Origin: an uncultured Actinomycetota bacterium
GTDB lineage: Bacteria; Actinomycetota; Actinomycetes; JAHEKZ01
Direction: 5' to 3'
DNA: 64,000 nt
NCBI GenBank assembly: GCA_963829525.1
Contig: CAWHIJ010000003.1
Coordinates: 160,001 to 224,000 of the forward strand
In this document: positions 3,022 through 9,468 of the stretch, one piece after another
Layout: the number at the start of each line of letters is the position of its first letter
Position numbering within the stretch: position 1 is the first letter of the stretch
The notes under the pieces: generated by a model
The model's input: the letters and a program-made list of their open reading frames with translations, nothing else
Database searches by the model: none
What the model was told of the DNA's origin: nothing
Program-made: the position numbers and the translations under genes

Positions 3022-4101
3022 TCACGCGATCAATACTGGAGGGTGATCTGGGACGTGATCCCCCGCCGGTTCGTACACCGGCGGCGGAACAGCCACCAGC
3101 GACCGACGGTGGCGCGAATCCTCCTCGAAGTTCTGCAGTGACAGCGTCCATCGATCGTCCGGCCAGCTGAGCTCGAGCATCCTGTGGTCGACGTCGTAGG
3201 CGGCCGTATAGACCGTCCCCCATGTGCTGGTCGCCGTCGAGCGATGAATCGGGGCAGTCAGGAACTGGTTGACGAGGTCTGGCACTCCGAGCACGGGGTT
3301 GGCCACTGCCTCTGCCATCGCCTGTTCGCGAGGAACAGTCGCACAGAACTCGGCATGCTCTGGCCACATGGTCGGACCCTGGCGGTTGGCTGCCGTGATC
3401 ACCCCGCTGACGATCGGCTCGCGGTCGGGGGCGACGTAGACAATTGCGCCGCGACCTGACGCATCCACCAAGGCGATGTTGTACGTCAGCTGGATCGGGA
3501 TCCGGTGCAGCATCGCCACGGCCTCATCGACGTTGGTGGCGAACTCGAGTAGGTAGCGGACCACCAGTCCGATGCCGAAACCGTCGCCGACGACGGGCCG
3601 GCCGCCGAACGCGATCGCCACCGAGAGGCCGTGTGCGTTGACGCCGTCCAGCGCACCCCAAAGGCAGTCGGTCATGGCCATGACGGGGGTCCCATGCCAG
3701 GACGAGGCCAGCACCGTGTTGTCGCACAGCAAGGGCGGGTAGTCGTAGTTGCGCAGCAGCACGTTGCGCTCGCGGTTATAGGTCAGCAGCGAGCAAGCAG
3801 CGAAGAGGGGCGGCGGCCGCCAATGGCTCAAGAACCTGGCCTCCAGGTCGCCGCCGCCAACCGCCTCCACCAGCCGGTCGTAGGTAGGGGCGAGCTCGGG
3901 CATGTAGGTGCGCAGCATCTGGGCGCACTCGGCGTAGCGCGGACGCGCGGCCTCACCCTGGTTCAGGTACCACCGTCGGTAGGCCGGCCACGCGGCCGAG
4001 AAGAACTCGAGCAGCCGTCCGTCCAGGGCGTCCCCGGCGTCGATCGACCGGAAGGTCGTGTCGAGCTCGACGACCTCCGGCGAGACGTGCGGGTGATGCA
4101 T
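3022..4101 (-). CDS. C45 family Ntn hydrolase/acyltransferase, copy 1
   Basis: AA|CS nucleophile (Cys103 from ATG 4101), RNYDY, LDGVNAHGL; start trimmed from the ORF track because the upstream part is antisense to the amidase. Confidence 0.85.
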   Translation of the reverse strand: MHHPHVSPEVVELDTTFRSIDAGDALDGRLLEFFSAAWPAYRRWYLNQGEAARPRYAECAQMLRTYMPELAPTYDRLVEAVGGGDLEARFLSHWRPPPLFAACSLLTYNRERNVLLRNYDYPPLLCDNTVLASSWHGTPVMAMTDCLWGALDGVNAHGLSVAIAFGGRPVVGDGFGIGLVVRYLLEFATNVDEAVAMLHRIPIQLTYNIALVDASGRGAIVYVAPDREPIVSGVITAANRQGPTMWPEHAEFCATVPREQAMAEAVANPVLGVPDLVNQFLTAPIHRSTATSTWGTVYTAAYDVDHRMLELSWPDDRWTLSLQNFEEDSRHRRSLVAVPPPVYEPAGDHVPDHPPVLIA

Positions 4102-4309
4102 TCGAGCCCACCTAGAGACGGAGCAGCAGAACGTACGCCCGAGTATGAGTGATCCGGAGGGAAAATCGACAGCAAACGACACCAAATTGAGCCGAAGTCG
4201 CGACATTCCCGCAGGCAACCCCAGGATCAGCAAATGCCGCGAAACGCCCACGGGTGGCTGTGCGGGGCCACTCCGGGTCACTCGGACGCCCCCGACTAGC
4301 ATCCCCCGG

Positions 4310-5746
4310 GTGGAGTTGCATGAGTACGCCCAATACGACGCCCTGGGGTTGGCTGAACTCGTCGCCGACGGCCAGGTCAGCCCGCGTGAGCTCGCAGCCT
4401 GCGCCGTAGCCGCCGTCGAGCGGGTCGACGGCACCCTGGGGGCGGTGGTCGAGACATACGCTGACCGGGCCGAATCCATCGGCGACGAAATCCCCGCCGA
4501 GCCCTTCTTCGGTGTCCCCACCATGGTCAAGGACCTCTTCCACGGCGAGGCCGGCAAACACTGCGGCAATGGCAGCCGCCTCAGCGAGGACTGGGTGGTC
4601 TCTCTCGACACCGCCTTCTACGACCGGATCCGACGCAGCGGCCTGATCAACGTGGGACGCACCACAACGTCGGAGTTCGGGATCATGGGTACCACCGAGA
4701 CTCTCGCTGCTGGGCTGACCTGCACCCCGTGGAGCTCAAACCACTCAGCTGGCGGCTCCAGCGGCGGGGCGGCAGCCGTCGTCGGCGCTGGGATCGTGCC
4801 GGTGGCCTCAGCCAGCGACGGAGGCGGCTCCATCCGCATCCCCGCGGCCTCCTGCGGAGTCGTGGGGCTGAAGACCTCGCGCGGAAGAGTTACCTGGGGA
4901 CCGCAGATCGCCGAGGCGCTCGCCGGATGGGCGGTGCACTTCATGGTGAGCCGCTCGGTCCGCGACACCGCAGCGATGCTGGACGCCTTGGGTGGCCCCG
5001 CGTATGGCGACCCCTTCGTCATACCTGGTCCAACGCGCCCCTTCCTAGAAGAGGTGGGGAGCTCGGTCGAACCGCTGCGGATCGCCTACTGGAGCACGCC
5101 TTGGTCGGGGCAGGACCCCGACCCCGAAGTTGCTGCTGCCACCGAGTCGACGGCGCAGTTGCTTGAGTCGCTCGGGCACCACGTCGAGCTGGCCACACCC
5201 CAGTTCGACTGGGAACCGTTCCTGATCGCGATGACTGACGTTTGGGCGGCCGACAACGCGCACACCGTCGATGGGCTTGCCGCCTTCCTGGGAAAGACCG
5301 TCAACGCAGACACGCTCGAAGGTTCGACGCTCGCGGCAGTCGAGTACGGGCGCACCATTTCGGCCGGGCGCCTGCTCGATGCCATGGGCCAGGCGAACCA
5401 CCTCGCACGCATCATGGGCTGGTTCTTCGCGTCCTACGACGTCCTCCTGACCCCAACCCTCGGACGCCTACCTGCGCCGCTGAAGATGTACGACCCTTCC
5501 GAGCCCGTGGAGCTGCGGCGAATGTTCGAGACCTGGTCACCGTGGGAGTCGTTCCTACCGGTGTTCAACGCGACCGGCCAGCCGGCCATCAGCCTGCCGC
5601 TGCACATGAGCGACACCGGACTCCCGATCGGCATGCAGCTCGTCGGCGGATTCGGCCAGGAGTCGTTGCTGCTGCGTCTGTCGGCACAGCTGGAAGAGGC
5701 GCTGCCATGGGCCGGACGGATCCCACCGATCCACGTCAGCCGCTGA
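4310..5746 (+). CDS. Amidase signature family protein
   Basis: VKDL, GGSSGG, SDGGGSIRIPAASCG, PAISLP; GTG start at 4310 inferred. Confidence 0.92.
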   Translation: MELHEYAQYDALGLAELVADGQVSPRELAACAVAAVERVDGTLGAVVETYADRAESIGDEIPAEPFFGVPTMVKDLFHGEAGKHCGNGSRLSEDWVVSLDTAFYDRIRRSGLINVGRTTTSEFGIMGTTETLAAGLTCTPWSSNHSAGGSSGGAAAVVGAGIVPVASASDGGGSIRIPAASCGVVGLKTSRGRVTWGPQIAEALAGWAVHFMVSRSVRDTAAMLDALGGPAYGDPFVIPGPTRPFLEEVGSSVEPLRIAYWSTPWSGQDPDPEVAAATESTAQLLESLGHHVELATPQFDWEPFLIAMTDVWAADNAHTVDGLAAFLGKTVNADTLEGSTLAAVEYGRTISAGRLLDAMGQANHLARIMGWFFASYDVLLTPTLGRLPAPLKMYDPSEPVELRRMFETWSPWESFLPVFNATGQPAISLPLHMSDTGLPIGMQLVGGFGQESLLLRLSAQLEEALPWAGRIPPIHVSR

Positions 5747-5761
5747 CCCCCACCTCATCGT

Positions 5762-6016
5762 TCAGCCCTGCCGCCACCTTGACCAGGCGGCCTGCTTGGT
5801 CGTCCCGGCCACGTCGGCCACCTGCGACCAAGACCCGCTCTCGGCGAGCGTGCGCGCCGAGAGTCCAAGGCACTGGCCGACCTCTTCGCTGACGCGGAGC
5901 AACTCCTCGAATGCCCTCCGGTCTGACCGCGTGGCCAGCTCTCGGAGTGCAGTCACAATGAGGTCACCGACCTCGTCGACCGTCTGGGTGCTGAAGTGCT
6001 CGCGACCGTGCATCAT
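5762..6016 (-). CDS. Small HTH protein (84 aa), probable transcriptional repressor
   Basis: C-terminal SWSQVADVAGTTKQAAWSRW matches the actinobacterial SWxxIGxxLGVxKQAAxxRF HTH type; helical N-terminal half. Confidence 0.75.
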   Translation of the reverse strand: MMHGREHFSTQTVDEVGDLIVTALRELATRSDRRAFEELLRVSEEVGQCLGLSARTLAESGSWSQVADVAGTTKQAAWSRWRQG

Positions 6017-6038
6017 GTGCCCACTGTCCACTGCGGCG

Positions 6039-6065
6039 TTGTCCTGGACAAGTTGTCCGGGACAA
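6039..6065. repeat. Tandem pair of 13-bp palindromes (TTGTCCnGGACAA x2) that also folds as one hairpin
   Basis: TTGTCCTGGACAA-G-TTGTCCGGGACAA read directly between the C45 stop and the HTH start. Confidence 0.7.
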
Positions 6066-6086
6066 GTGGTGACTCGACAGCGTGGC

Positions 6087-7358
6087 CTATCGAAGCCGCA
6101 CCTGCACCTCGTCGTCCGACGAGTCGAAGGTGCGACGCCAGGTCCTACCAGGCCAGCGGTAGATGACCTCCCCGTCGTTCGGCCGGTAGTCCGCCGTGTA
6201 GAGCGTTCCAAAGCCTCCCTCGAAGTCGGTGCTCCGTAAGGCCGGGGACAGAAAGGTCGCCGCGGCCGTATCCGCGGCGCAACCATCGCGGTCAAGACCG
6301 CGCAGGACGTCTTGGCGCTCCACGCTCCGAAACCGTCGCGCCAGCTCGGGGCGGTCAGGAACCAAGCCTCGATGGTTCGTAGCCAATGGCATGTCGAAGT
6401 ACTCAGGGTCACGACCTGGCGCCACAAACACCGTGGCCGCCACGCCTGTGCGGTCGGTCATGGTGAGGTTGTAGCTGGCAGCCACAGGCACACGGCCAAT
6501 CACCTGACGCGCCTCTTCAACGGTGTCGCACATCTCCAGCAAGTAGCGCACCACAAGTGGGATGCCGAACCCGTCGCCGGTGCCGGGCAGCCCACCAAAC
6601 GTCAACGAGACAGCCAGCCCACTGTCGTTCATCCCGTCCAACAGACCCCACAGGCAGTCGCTGGTTCCGATCACGCGCCGATCACCCCATTGGCTCGACA
6701 GGCTCACCCCTTCGAACAGCATCGGGTCGTAGTCGTAGTTCCGCAGCAGGGCGCGCTCGCTGCCATTCACGACCAGTTGCGAGCACCCGGGCGCGAACGC
6801 CGGCGGGTTCCACAACGAGAGCATCCGGGCGACGTCACTGTCGTCGTCGGTCAACGTGACGAGGTGCTCCCATGTGGGCAACAGCTCCGGCATGTACCGC
6901 CTGATGGCATCCTGAGACTGCGACAACGAGGGACGCCGGTCCCAGCCCTCGGACGCGTACCACGACAGGTAGGACGCCCGCGTCGCCTCGAGCAGGGCAC
7001 TCCATGCCGGTCCAGGACGCTGTTCGTGGAGACCCAACATCGTGAGACTGACCGGGGCCGGCATCGAAACGGGCTCCACCATCGATGCGCGCCGCCAGTC
7101 GACCGCAGTCCCGCAGGTGGCCGAAGCCGGTGTTGCCCGAACCGGACGGGTGGCATAGGACGCGGACGACGAGGACCAGGTGGAGGCGCCCAGGCACCGG
7201 CCTAGATCACCCATCGACCGTCCGAGGTGCTCCAACGTCCGTGCCAGCTGAGCGCCGTCGTGGTCGGCACGTCGACCAAGTTCGTCGCAGGCCAGCGCGA
7301 GATGGTGTGAAAGCTCCGATGTCGTCAGGGATGCGAGTGAGCTATGCGTCATTGTCAT
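6087..7358 (-). CDS. C45 family Ntn hydrolase, copy 2, with an N-terminal extension resembling the neighbouring HTH protein
   Basis: PG|CSQ nucleophile (codon 6783-6785), RNYDY, DCLWGLLDGMN; ATG at 7358 lies directly under the palindromic operators. Confidence 0.8.
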   Translation of the reverse strand: MTMTHSSLASLTTSELSHHLALACDELGRRADHDGAQLARTLEHLGRSMGDLGRCLGASTWSSSSASYATRPVRATPASATCGTAVDWRRASMVEPVSMPAPVSLTMLGLHEQRPGPAWSALLEATRASYLSWYASEGWDRRPSLSQSQDAIRRYMPELLPTWEHLVTLTDDDSDVARMLSLWNPPAFAPGCSQLVVNGSERALLRNYDYDPMLFEGVSLSSQWGDRRVIGTSDCLWGLLDGMNDSGLAVSLTFGGLPGTGDGFGIPLVVRYLLEMCDTVEEARQVIGRVPVAASYNLTMTDRTGVAATVFVAPGRDPEYFDMPLATNHRGLVPDRPELARRFRSVERQDVLRGLDRDGCAADTAAATFLSPALRSTDFEGGFGTLYTADYRPNDGEVIYRWPGRTWRRTFDSSDDEVQVRLR

Positions 7359-7360
7359 GC

Positions 7361-7407
7361 CGTCAAGTAAACCTTGACGCCGCCCCTTCGTCAAGTTTAC
7401 CTTGACG
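7361..7407. promoter_or_regulatory. Twin 19-bp palindromic operators CGTCAAG-N5-CTTGACG
   Basis: 7361-7379 CGTCAAGTAAACCTTGACG and 7389-7407 CGTCAAGTTTACCTTGACG; the second contains a TAAACT -10-like hexamer on the minus strand. Confidence 0.8.
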
Positions 7408-7438
7408 CCGCAATCCGCCGGCTCAGCACGAACGTAAG

Positions 7439-7464
7439 GTTTCGGGCGGTCCCAAGCCGGGTAC
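7439..7464 (+). promoter_or_regulatory. SigB/SigF-type promoter
   Basis: GTTT-N16-GGGTAC upstream of 7519. Confidence 0.7.
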
Positions 7465-7518
7465 TAGCCGGATGAAGGGACGAGAAGGGCGGCACCGGCA
7501 TGATCGCCGCAGTCGAGG

Positions 7519-7944
7519 ATGGAGACAATGACGCGCATGCAGGAGGAGCTGGACAATGCCCAAAGCCTGTCCGTTCCATGGCTGCTGCCGGAAGGCTCTG
7601 AAAGCGTGACCCTCGCGCGGCATGCTGCGCGTCGCCACCTCACCGCGCTCGGCGTCGCTCCAGAGATCATCGATACCGCCGAGCTGCTCGTAAGTGAACT
7701 CACCGCCAACGTGATCAAGCATGCTGGGGGTCGTCCCACCCTACGAGTGATGCGGCACGATGACGTGATCCGAATCGAAGTGGGCGACTCCCGACCAGAT
7801 CAGTTTCCGGTCGCACGCGACCTTGACACCGAGGCCCCATCCGGACGCGGGCTGCTTCTGGTCACGACTCTCGCCACGTCCTGGGGTTACGAACTCGATG
7901 GCGATGGGAAGTTCACGTGGGCCGAGCTCGAGATGCCTCAATAG
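7519..7944 (+). CDS. RsbW-like HATPase (anti-sigma factor/Ser kinase type)
   Basis: LLVSELTANVIKHA, EVGD, SGRGLLLV, GKFTWAEL. Confidence 0.88.
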   Translation: METMTRMQEELDNAQSLSVPWLLPEGSESVTLARHAARRHLTALGVAPEIIDTAELLVSELTANVIKHAGGRPTLRVMRHDDVIRIEVGDSRPDQFPVARDLDTEAPSGRGLLLVTTLATSWGYELDGDGKFTWAELEMPQ

Positions 7945-7972
7945 CGACGGCACTTGCTGCCTCCACGGCTGG

Positions 7973-8692
7973 TCAGCTCTCCAACGTCATCTGGTCACGA
8001 AGGTGCGCCAAGGTTCGCGTGAGCAGACGTGAGACGTGCATCTGCGAGATGCCGAGCTCGTCGGCGATCTCAGTCTGTGTCATGTTGCGGAAGAAGCGCA
8101 TCTCCAAGAGCCTGCTCTCCCTTTCTGGAAGCATGGCCATCAGCGGCCTAAGAGCGTGGCGGTCCTCTACCCGCTCGAACGACGGGTCGACACTCCCCAC
8201 AACGGCTGCGAGACTCAAGGCGTCTTCGTCAGGGTCGACCAGTGGGTCGATGCTCTGCGTGTTGTAGGCCCGGCCGACCTCCAACCCCTGGAGCACATCG
8301 TCCTCGCTGACCGACAGCCGCTCAGCCAGCTCGGACACCGTCGGTGAGCGGTGCAGCTCGTGGGTGAGGTCGTCTACCGCTTTCGTCAGCGCCATCCGAA
8401 GCTCTTGCAGTTGGCGCGGTACGCGCAGCGCCCAACCCTTGTCCCGGAAGTGTCGCTTGATTTCGCCCAGCACGGTTGGTGTCGCAAAGGTCGCGAACTC
8501 GATCTCACGTGACGCGTCGAACCGGTCTGCGGCCTTCACCAGCGCCAGATAGGCAACCTGCGTGAGGTCCTCCAGCGACTCGCCTCGGCCGATGAAGCGA
8601 CGAGCCAGGTGTTCTGCCAGGCCCATGTGCGACTGGACGAGCAGATCGCGGGCCTGCGTTCGGTCTGACATTGCCGTCATCTCCGTCGGCAC
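7973..8692 (-). CDS. SigB/SigF family RNA polymerase sigma factor
   Basis: DLTQVAYLALVKAADRFD, FATPTVLGEIKRHFRD, TQTEIADELGISQMHVSRL. Confidence 0.95.
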   Translation of the reverse strand: MPTEMTAMSDRTQARDLLVQSHMGLAEHLARRFIGRGESLEDLTQVAYLALVKAADRFDASREIEFATFATPTVLGEIKRHFRDKGWALRVPRQLQELRMALTKAVDDLTHELHRSPTVSELAERLSVSEDDVLQGLEVGRAYNTQSIDPLVDPDEDALSLAAVVGSVDPSFERVEDRHALRPLMAMLPERESRLLEMRFFRNMTQTEIADELGISQMHVSRLLTRTLAHLRDQMTLES

Positions 8693-8702
8693 CTCAGCAC
8701 CT

Positions 8703-9125
8703 TCAGAGCGCGGCGTCGAGGACGGGGCCTCGACTGCGGGTCACAGAGATTACCTGTCCGCGCTCGTCGGTCTCGCTGGAGACCTCGTTGGCGAGGGCCC
8801 GCAGGATGCTCCACGCAAAACCCTCGTCGGGAGCCGTGGATGCCGTCGTGACGGCGGCGGTCAGCCGAAATCGAATCGTGTCGTCGGTCGCCTCGATCTC
8901 GCAGAGCAGTGTCCCCTCGGCGCCGGAAGTCAGAAGGACTGACGCCGCCTCGTCGATCAGGATACGGAGGTCGTCGATGTCGTCGAGCGAGAATTCCAGC
9001 CGGCTCGCGATCACGCCGGCGGCGGCCCGCAGCACGGCGAGATGGTCGGCCTGGGCCGGAACCTCGATCGTCACCATGCCCGGAGCGCCACCTCGCCCGA
9101 TGTCTCGCCCCTGGGTGTCACTCAT
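8703..9125 (-). CDS. Anti-sigma factor (RsbW/UsfX-like)
   Basis: LDDIDDLRILIDEA, FAWSILRALA; lies between the STAS and sigma genes. Confidence 0.85.
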   Translation of the reverse strand: MSDTQGRDIGRGGAPGMVTIEVPAQADHLAVLRAAAGVIASRLEFSLDDIDDLRILIDEAASVLLTSGAEGTLLCEIEATDDTIRFRLTAAVTTASTAPDEGFAWSILRALANEVSSETDERGQVISVTRSRGPVLDAAL

Positions 9126-9468
9126 CGCCGGCGACCGATTCGACAGCAGCTAACTCGTCGTGGTGAAGGTCGAACACGGTGTCCATGCCGGTGAGGTGCA
9201 GGATCTTACGAATAGCTCCGTCGGGCACTACAAAGGCCAGTGCCACATCGGCCTCACGGCAGCGACGTTGACAGCCCACCAGCTCACCGATGCCTGTCGA
9301 GTCGATGAAGCCTACGCCGCGTAAGTCGACCACGATGCCGGCGTCCGCCGCGGTCTCGGCAGCGATCAGACCCTCACGGAACTGCTCCGAGGTGGCGAGG
9401 TCGACCTCGCCCTGGGGCGCAACTACGACTGTAGTTCCGACATTTCTCTGCCAGATCTTCAAGTTCAC
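9118..9468 (-). CDS. STAS-domain anti-sigma factor antagonist (RsbV-like)
   Basis: GEVDLAT, VVDLRGVGFIDSTGIG with the phosphorylatable Ser. Confidence 0.92.
   Translation of the reverse strand: MNLKIWQRNVGTTVVVAPQGEVDLATSEQFREGLIAAETAADAGIVVDLRGVGFIDSTGIGELVGCQRRCREADVALAFVVPDGAIRKILHLTGMDTVFDLHHDELAAVESVAGDE

Follow-up and report, generated by a model that had tools for sequence, protein, structure and literature searches.

A stretch of 64,000 nucleotides from an uncultured Actinomycetota bacterium (contig CAWHIJ010000003.1, positions 160,001 to 224,000, forward strand; hereafter the window, numbered from its first letter) contains, on the minus strand, a gene for a hydrolase of peptidase family C45 that is followed by a gene for a small helical protein. 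Two palindromes immediately upstream of the hydrolase gene are predicted to serve as operators. The hydrolase carries at its N-terminus a helical hairpin homologous to the small protein's N-terminal half and without a counterpart of that protein's probable helix-turn-helix (HTH). The features of this cassette are listed in Table 1.

Table 1. Features of the C45 hydrolase cassette in the window (dN/dS, ratio of nonsynonymous to synonymous substitution rates; pLDDT, predicted local distance difference test; loci as defined in the text)
Feature	Coordinates	Strand	Remarks
Small-protein gene	5762..6016	-	84 aa; four helices; probable HTH; 170-protein family
Intergenic spacer, enzyme gene to small gene	6017..6086	-	70 nt; two tandem palindromic units at 6038-6065
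C45 (isopenicillin-N acyltransferase-like) Ntn-hydrolase gene	6087..7358	-	423 aa + stop; start ATG 7358; NF040521, PF03417
Cys192 codon	6783..6785	-	predicted autoproteolytic and catalytic nucleophile; motif PGCSQ
Disordered variable linker, residues 60-97	7068..7181	-	pLDDT <50; dN/dS 0.47; indels in frame
N-terminal hairpin domain of the enzyme, residues ~6-59	7182..7343	-	helices 13-29 and 35-58; homologous to N-terminal half of small protein
Proximal operator palindrome (predicted)	7361..7379	-	A/T-rich centre; ends 2 nt before ATG 7358
Distal operator palindrome (predicted)	7389..7407	-	CGTCAAG-N5-CTTGACG; counterpart site in 70/72 loci

Family profiles, predicted fold and a Gly-Cys site together assign the enzyme to the peptidase C45 or isopenicillin-N acyltransferase (IAT)-like N-terminal nucleophile (Ntn) hydrolases. 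It matched the NF040521 C45_proenzyme profile with an E-value of 1.4e-38 (133 bits; cut-off 85) and PF03417 with an E-value of 4e-26 (92.5 bits; cut-off 23.2), both matches starting near residue 113. The AlphaFold2 (AF2) model of the enzyme, based on an alignment of 54 orthologues, reached a pLDDT of 86.4 overall and of >90 in the core, and its best Foldseek match was 2x1c, the IAT precursor of Penicillium (E 9e-13; template modelling (TM) score 0.58/0.67). Cys192 is invariant in 54 of the 54 aligned orthologues and Gly191 is present in at least 90%; from what is known of the C45 family and of Ntn hydrolases, Cys192 is predicted to be the nucleophile and the site of self-cleavage. The enzyme thus resembles IAT in its fold, its family profiles and its Gly-Cys autoprocessing site, whereas it differs in sequence (15-17% identity), in the additional N-terminal hairpin and linker, and in its genetic context, which is a regulator gene and not a penicillin cluster. 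A second C45 hydrolase in the window (copy 1, 3022..~4137) has a core that is 36% identical to that of the operator-linked enzyme. An earlier reading of the window, made from its letters (the original prediction), had described copy 1 as devoid of an N-terminal extension, and indeed copy 1 has neither the hairpin nor an operator.

The small protein found no match in Pfam or NCBIfam. Its AF2 model (pLDDT 90.8) consists of helices at residues 13-29, 33-60, 63-70 and 74-81, of which the first two form a hairpin and the last two probably an HTH; the model contains the hairpin and the HTH-like helices only and has no effector domain. It is a member of an actinobacterial family (170 proteins, 74-99 residues) whose most invariant part is the C-terminus, comprising the last two helices (SARTLAE-GSWSQVADVAGTTKQAAWSRW), with the invariant motif GTTKQAAWSRW. 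HTH profiles touched residues 62-82 below threshold only. A search of the PDB with the profile of the small protein (E <= 10) returned designed helical proteins only and nothing relevant, and the matches in the ESM Atlas were confined to clusters of Actinomycetota proteins named 'hypothetical protein'. A Foldseek search with the model yielded no significant match, and the top matches were all Fis. In Fis, two helices form an intertwined dimer core and are followed by a C-terminal HTH, and the four helices predicted for the small protein may follow the same order. A Fis-type HTH was not among the Pfam matches listed at E <= 1 for 32 members of the family, and the likeness to Fis is taken as a topological lead only, not as membership. 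Defence models of PADLOC, applied to both proteins, gave 0 families at E <= 0.01; a toxin-antitoxin function was considered and dropped, as nothing spoke in its favour. Four homologues of 83-84 residues (P0003, P0009, P0013, P0021) are labelled 'mevalonate kinase' or 'pantoate kinase' in one source, names that, to judge by the size and sequence of the proteins, look like annotation errors.

Both palindromes have perfect arms and they are repeated with a period of 28 nt. Across the 64-kb window, CGTCAAG-N5-CTTGACG occurs with 0 mismatches only at 7361-7379 and 7389-7407, in agreement with the original prediction of twin palindromes with identical arms 2 bp before the ATG; with 2 mismatches, three more sites were found, compared with 2.5 expected by chance. 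In the distal palindrome, the promoter-proximal arm is TTGACG, a -35-like hexamer. A distance of 17-19 nt separates this arm from the downstream centre of the proximal palindrome, which is 70% A+T. As this arm and the A/T-rich centre are both situated inside palindromes, both promoter elements would fall within the operators. A strict promoter scan of 5600-7600 revealed no consensus sigma-70 promoter. There is no space for a Shine-Dalgarno sequence before ATG 7358, and the mRNA of the C45 gene is probably leaderless.

The wider occurrence of the cassette was determined by searching genome contigs, one genome per species, for members of the small-protein family, which resulted in 80 loci with a total of 851 kb. 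One locus (L061) is cut by the end of its contig and hence is not assessable for gene pairing; in all of the other 79 a C45 orthologue is encoded directly upstream of the small gene on the same strand. Eight loci are truncated at the 5' end, such that operators were counted in the 72 loci where the 5' end of the C45 gene is present. Each of the 72 has a palindrome within 90 nt of the C45 start; 70 have two and two have one (L042, L073), and the spacing from palindrome to palindrome is mostly 27-30 nt. The 851 kb contain 95 perfect palindromes, all at C45 starts and none elsewhere. The ATG follows the proximal palindrome after 1-2 nt in 67 loci and in the window, irrespective of the type of N-terminus that the enzyme has, and this conserved geometry identifies ATG 7358 as the start of the C45 gene. 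The C45 stop and the start of the small gene overlap or are only a few nucleotides apart in most loci, a closeness from which cotranscription of the two genes is inferred. The genes outside the pair are not conserved between lineages: an amidase and a second C45 in the relatives of the window, and an amidohydrolase and MFS gene, a permease and CoA-transferase gene or a beta-lactamase and CbiD gene in the others. Because the outer genes differ in this way, the unit is delimited to two genes and two operators, and on this comparative evidence it appears to be autoregulated, self-contained and widespread in Actinomycetota.

Autorepression is strongly implied because the gene pair, the palindromes and the position of the ATG are kept together in 72 of 72 loci. 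The original prediction had proposed that the HTH protein represses its operon and had suggested a search for the same arrangement in other genomes; the 72 loci with pair and palindromes lend support to this proposal, and comparative inference makes the small protein a well-supported, likely autorepressor at the twin palindromes. It could be argued instead that the palindromes are bound by another regulator or are mainly promoter elements, and that the small protein is, for example, a partner or chaperone of the enzyme. This would agree with the failure to place the small protein in any demonstrable DNA-binding family and with the -35-like sequence of the distal arm. However, the palindromes are perfect over 7+7 positions and occur twice per locus, all 95 of those in the 851 kb lie beside the gene pair, the window has only two perfect copies, and the small protein is most invariant in its last two helices. 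This alternative is accordingly regarded as improbable, and the palindromes are most simply read as sites of a dedicated local regulator.

The relationship between the enzyme and the putative repressor was revealed by comparing the N-terminal extension of the enzyme with the small protein. A Smith-Waterman alignment of enzyme residues 1-110 with the small protein had a score of 55, matched by 1 of 2000 and 0 of 2000 shuffled sequences. With hhalign, the 32-member profile of the small-protein family matched the single extension with a P value of 6e-6, and a profile of nine orthologous extensions matched the family with a probability of 94.9% and a P value of 4.5e-8, in an alignment of 47 columns that pairs extension residues 4-57 with small-protein residues 6-53. 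In the controls, P values were 0.098 and 0.14 for reversed profiles, 0.014 for the best of 60 shuffles of the columns and at least 0.12 for four other segments of the C45 enzyme. The original prediction had claimed that roughly the first 55 residues of the enzyme resemble the N-terminal half of the small protein and had called for a profile-profile comparison of the two N-termini; the similarity is significant at 4.5e-8, against at least 0.014 in the controls, which disposes of the objection that it might arise by chance. The two hairpins are about 30% identical, and helix 2 of the enzyme hairpin contains an insertion of about seven residues. In the AF2 models the helices of the extension (13-29 and 35-58; pLDDT 75-83) and those of the small protein (13-29 and 33-60) coincide almost residue for residue.

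The extension also occurs in eight other C45 proteins of 420-429 residues, where it is 52-67% identical to that of the window protein; residues 9-59 are well conserved across the orthologues, and the downstream linker varies by in-frame insertions and deletions. A hidden Markov model (HMM) of the N-terminal half of the small protein matched the window and 10 related loci in the frame of the C45 start only (E 3.6e-7 to 0.02). By contrast, an HMM of the HTH half found no match in any of three frames within the 420 nt that follow the palindrome in the window and the same 10 loci (best E 0.76). The enzyme copy therefore lacks the HTH, as had been predicted, in three frames and in 11 of 11 sequences. 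The idea of a complete but frameshifted small-gene copy upstream of the enzyme was rejected, as there was no HTH signal in any frame. In five long proteins (P0133, P0135-P0137, P0139; 866-1949 residues), 5-11 repeated stretches resemble residues ~28-61 of the extension (E 2e-11 to 2e-4); these may be repeat or coiled-coil proteins.

Selection on the extension was estimated from six orthologues (15 pairs; synonymous divergence dS ~1). The dN/dS ratio of the hairpin (0.16) was close to that of the catalytic core (0.13), and the linker reached 0.47. The insertions and deletions in nine orthologues are all in frame and leave the reading frame uninterrupted. Since the geometry of the ATG, the open frame, the frame of the N-half HMM matches and the dN/dS ratio agree, the hairpin is considered a selected protein domain that is translated and under purifying selection nearly as strong as that on the core. 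The original prediction had named a start at 7082 or 7064, with 7358-7085 untranslated, as the outcome that would overturn it. Initiation at an internal codon near one of these positions, which would make 7358-7085 a leader RNA, would account for the weak periodicity of GC content at third codon positions (GC3) in 7358-7050, for the lack of room for a Shine-Dalgarno sequence before ATG 7358 and for the missing consensus sigma-70 promoter. It would leave unexplained the distance of 1-2 nt from palindrome to ATG in 67 loci and the window, the frame that is open in nine orthologues with a dN/dS ratio of 0.16, and the N-half HMM matches in the C45 start frame only, and it is therefore judged extremely improbable.

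A different objection is that the extension is the relic of a small-gene duplicate that was inserted at the 5' end of the enzyme gene and has been tolerated as a functionless spacer. The length of extension and linker, about 100 residues, is close to that of the 84-residue gene plus a spacer, a permissive alignment over all 84 residues scored 66 and was matched by 0 of 2000 shuffles, and the part equivalent to the HTH is now disordered and evolves fast. A functionless spacer is nevertheless hard to reconcile with a dN/dS ratio in the hairpin that nearly equals that of the core at dS ~1, or with the retention of the hairpin in the divergent loci L007, L008, L009, L013 and L079, as detected with the N-half HMM; a relic is thus an improbable explanation. 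The anatomy, the homology of the hairpin to the small protein and the selection that acts on the hairpin are observed features.

The hairpin is one of several N-termini found among the 72 loci. It is present in 10 (L002-L009, L013, L079). In 42 loci the enzyme begins with a Trp-rich motif, PxxxxWxxWxxYGLxWA, that is followed by a variable low-complexity linker; examples are found in Mycolicibacterium stellerae (L063:4865-5968) and Kineosphaera limosa (L047:4820-5938). In 17 loci there is no extension and the protein begins about five residues before the core, and the remaining three are a different extension (L032) and two unclear cases (L018, L043). Because the 42 Trp-motif loci and the 17 without extension keep the same operators, the basic circuit works without the hairpin. 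The Trp-rich motif could be an alternative docking motif. In two contigs of metagenome-assembled genomes (L009:4681-4990 and L013:4671-5961), the hairpin is encoded in a different frame from the C45 core, possibly through assembly errors or genuine frameshifts. A quick version of a tree of the C45 core was calculated from 67 ingroup rows with copy 1 as the outgroup; it excluded six frameshifted loci (L010, L013, L018, L043, L071 and L073) and the eight that are truncated at the 5' end. In this tree the Trp-motif class forms one clade (support 99), and the hairpin class sits on an unresolved base at which an ancestral state and a single gain are indistinguishable.

Coupling of the two proteins is suggested by gene fusions in other lineages, revealed when the small protein was compared with longer proteins. 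Five proteins of 430-475 residues (P0140-P0143, P0145), which fall into at least two sequence groups, consist of a C45 core, a linker of about 30 residues and the whole small protein at the C-terminus. In genomic DNA such a fusion is encoded at L072:4924-6222 in one frame, with twin palindromes upstream. The fusions suggest that the enzyme and the regulator also work as a single physical entity where they are encoded separately, and they make some kind of physical coupling of enzyme and repressor likely.

Based on these observations we propose an autoregulated cassette in which the hairpin-bearing enzyme acts on the repressor, an explanation that we prefer and hold tentatively. According to this model, a leaderless promoter overlapped by two 19-bp palindromic operators drives the C45 gene and then the small gene. 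The small protein would dimerise through its first two helices and place its C-terminal HTH on the half-sites of a palindrome, such that one repressor dimer per palindrome occludes the promoter. In the lineage of the window, the enzyme carries a paralogous, translated and selectively maintained copy of these two helices at its N-terminus, on a flexible linker of about 40 residues and without the HTH. Pairing of the enzyme hairpin with the repressor hairpin would tether the enzyme to the repressor, and the mixed pair, having a single HTH, would hold poorly on the palindromes. The enzyme would then antagonise repression in the way SinI antagonises SinR; the co-repressor direction is also conceivable. 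A SinI-like antagonist is favoured because a mixed pair with one HTH should hold the palindrome poorly. The state of the enzyme, either bound to substrate or autoprocessed at Cys192, probably sets the availability of the hairpin. In this way the enzyme would supply signal sensing to a repressor that itself lacks an effector domain, a role ascribed to it because it is the only other constant component of the cassette. That the enzyme acts as a pseudo-subunit of its own repressor is a plausible hypothesis.

Several points weigh against the proposed model. The HTH assignment of the small protein rests on sub-threshold profile matches and the helix pattern, and the match of its model to Fis falls short of significance (Foldseek E 2.6; TM 0.44). 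BLASTP of the enzyme against the small protein yielded noise only, and the GC3 periodicity of 7358-7050 is weak and below that of the core. The hairpin is present in 10 of 72 loci only, whereas the same operators occur with and without it. In a similarity test, from which the L009 row was disregarded as it had been read in the wrong frame, a hairpin did not resemble the small protein encoded at its own locus more than those encoded at other loci, which argues for one old origin of the hairpin and gives no sign of maintenance by co-evolution or mimicry. One mRNA encodes both proteins, such that a simple 1:1 titration would need further control. Lastly, the repressor part of the fusions presumably retains DNA binding while attached to the enzyme, which agrees better with a co-repressor or sensor than with an antagonist.

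Some of these points also bear on the main rival explanation, in which the hairpin is a self-association module that derives from the dimerisation helices of the repressor and now dimerises the enzyme or holds its alpha subunit, there is no cross-talk with the repressor, and the repressor is a plain negative autoregulator. Paralogous dimerisation modules often diverge, which avoids cross-pairing. Divergence of this kind is consistent with the insertion of about seven residues in helix 2, with an identity of only about 30% to the small protein, with the lack of locus-specific similarity, and with the 62 of 72 loci that run the circuit without the hairpin. Self-association fits less well with the C-terminal fusions of the whole repressor, which point to functional coupling, and with the strict pairing in 79 of 79 loci, where no other neighbour is conserved, suggesting that the pair is the working unit. 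We regard this explanation as possible, on balance doubtful, and continue to favour action of the hairpin on the repressor. In a broader version of the latter, the C45 enzyme would be the ligand-sensing subunit of a split one-component regulator and would be tethered to it in at least three interchangeable ways across lineages, namely, by the duplicated hairpin, by fusion of the whole repressor and by the PxxxxWxxWxxYGLxWA docking motif. This generalisation is considered unlikely.

Among known systems, SinI-SinR would be the closest in mechanism, and trigger enzymes and enzyme-regulator fusions the closest in architecture. In Bacillus subtilis (PMC3163267), SinI shares the helical oligomerisation surface of SinR, has no DNA-binding domain and forms a heterodimer in which DNA binding is abolished. 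The enzyme hairpin is similarly homologous to the half of the small protein that does not contain the HTH and itself lacks the HTH. The two systems are unrelated in sequence (Pfam at E <= 0.1 gave nothing for the small protein and PF03417 only for the enzyme). Moreover, the hairpin is N-terminal and not C-terminal, it is part of an enzyme and not a free peptide, and it is cotranscribed with the repressor instead of being separately controlled; the heterodimer, established for SinI-SinR, is here a proposal.

Trigger enzymes, such as PutA and BirA, are metabolic enzymes that reside in, or bind, the transcription factor of their own genes. Their enzyme-regulator architecture is shared by the C45-small protein fusions (P0140-P0143, P0145, L072). 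The proteins of the window differ from them in being separate, in the proposed link through a duplicated dimerisation hairpin, and in the catalytic domain, which is a C45 Ntn-hydrolase.

The original prediction had also drawn a parallel to the mycobacterial ClpC2 protein, of which one part stands and another does not. In the sections of the two reports that bear on the comparison (PMC10030653; bioRxiv 10.64898/2026.06.30.735635), ClpC2 is self-repressing at pseudopalindromic operators that are double in most species, dimerises via an N-terminal four-helix bundle and is released from DNA by its ligand, DNA binding being assigned to the C-terminal, ligand-binding domain. As far as these sections go, the parallel holds for the autorepressor, the palindromic and often double operators and the N-terminal helical dimer. 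It is not supported for a shared KQAA-type HTH: these sections make no mention of a helix-turn-helix and place DNA binding in the C-terminal domain, and no sequence similarity was detectable, the profile search of the PDB (E <= 10) having returned no ClpC2 chain and the Pfam search no Clp_N match. ClpC2, as described there, further differs in having a ligand-binding domain of its own and no enzyme partner. A literature search for an operon of a C45 enzyme and an HTH protein found no paper on 'peptidase C45' with such an operon, although an earlier description may exist. To judge by these searches, the cassette with the duplicated hairpin appears to represent a so far undescribed form of control that varies on SinI/SinR or on trigger enzymes.

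Should hairpin and repressor indeed pair, the state of a metabolic enzyme would feed directly into transcription, with the enzyme acting as a DNA-binding-deficient subunit of its own repressor. The principle of a DNA-binding-deficient subunit is realised in SinI/SinR and in the eukaryotic Id/bHLH proteins; it is not known to reside within an enzyme, and the type of cassette seen in the window would be the first bacterial example of an enzyme that regulates its own operon as a pseudo-subunit in the dimer interface of its repressor. With two genes and a control region of 47 bp, the cassette is a possible compact inducible switch. The natural variants, with hairpin, Trp motif, no extension or full fusion, offer a comparative system for the evolution of the tether between a regulator and its sensor. 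The cassette also provides a first functional context for the 170-member 'hypothetical' family and for one clade of uncharacterised C45 hydrolases.

The spacer between the two genes contains, at 6038-6065, two tandem 14-nt units, GTTGTCC(T/G)GGACAA, each with the palindrome TTGTCC-N-GGACAA. The spacer of close relatives has one partial unit only (CACTTGTCC ... GACAGTGG). The predicted RNA fold of the spacer is not exceptional (z -1.5), and the units may serve as a second operator or may have arisen by local duplication.

Just downstream of the cassette (window 3022-5746), a convergent amidase gene (PF01425) and the extension-less second C45 gene are located. The same arrangement is found at L003:6280-8992 and in L008, with the amidase at 6264-7697 and the second C45 match at 7961-8857, and not in other lineages; it may represent a lineage-specific amide-hydrolysis cluster. 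On the other side (window 7519-9468), the cassette is adjoined by a sigma-factor module in which a divergent gene for an anti-sigma kinase of the HATPase_c_2 type (7519-7944, plus strand) is followed by a gene for a group-3-like sigma factor (7973-8692, minus strand); two more open reading frames lie next to them on the minus strand (8703-9125 and 9118-9468). On the corresponding side in relatives, a sigma factor is encoded in L003 and an HATPase_c_2 protein in L008.

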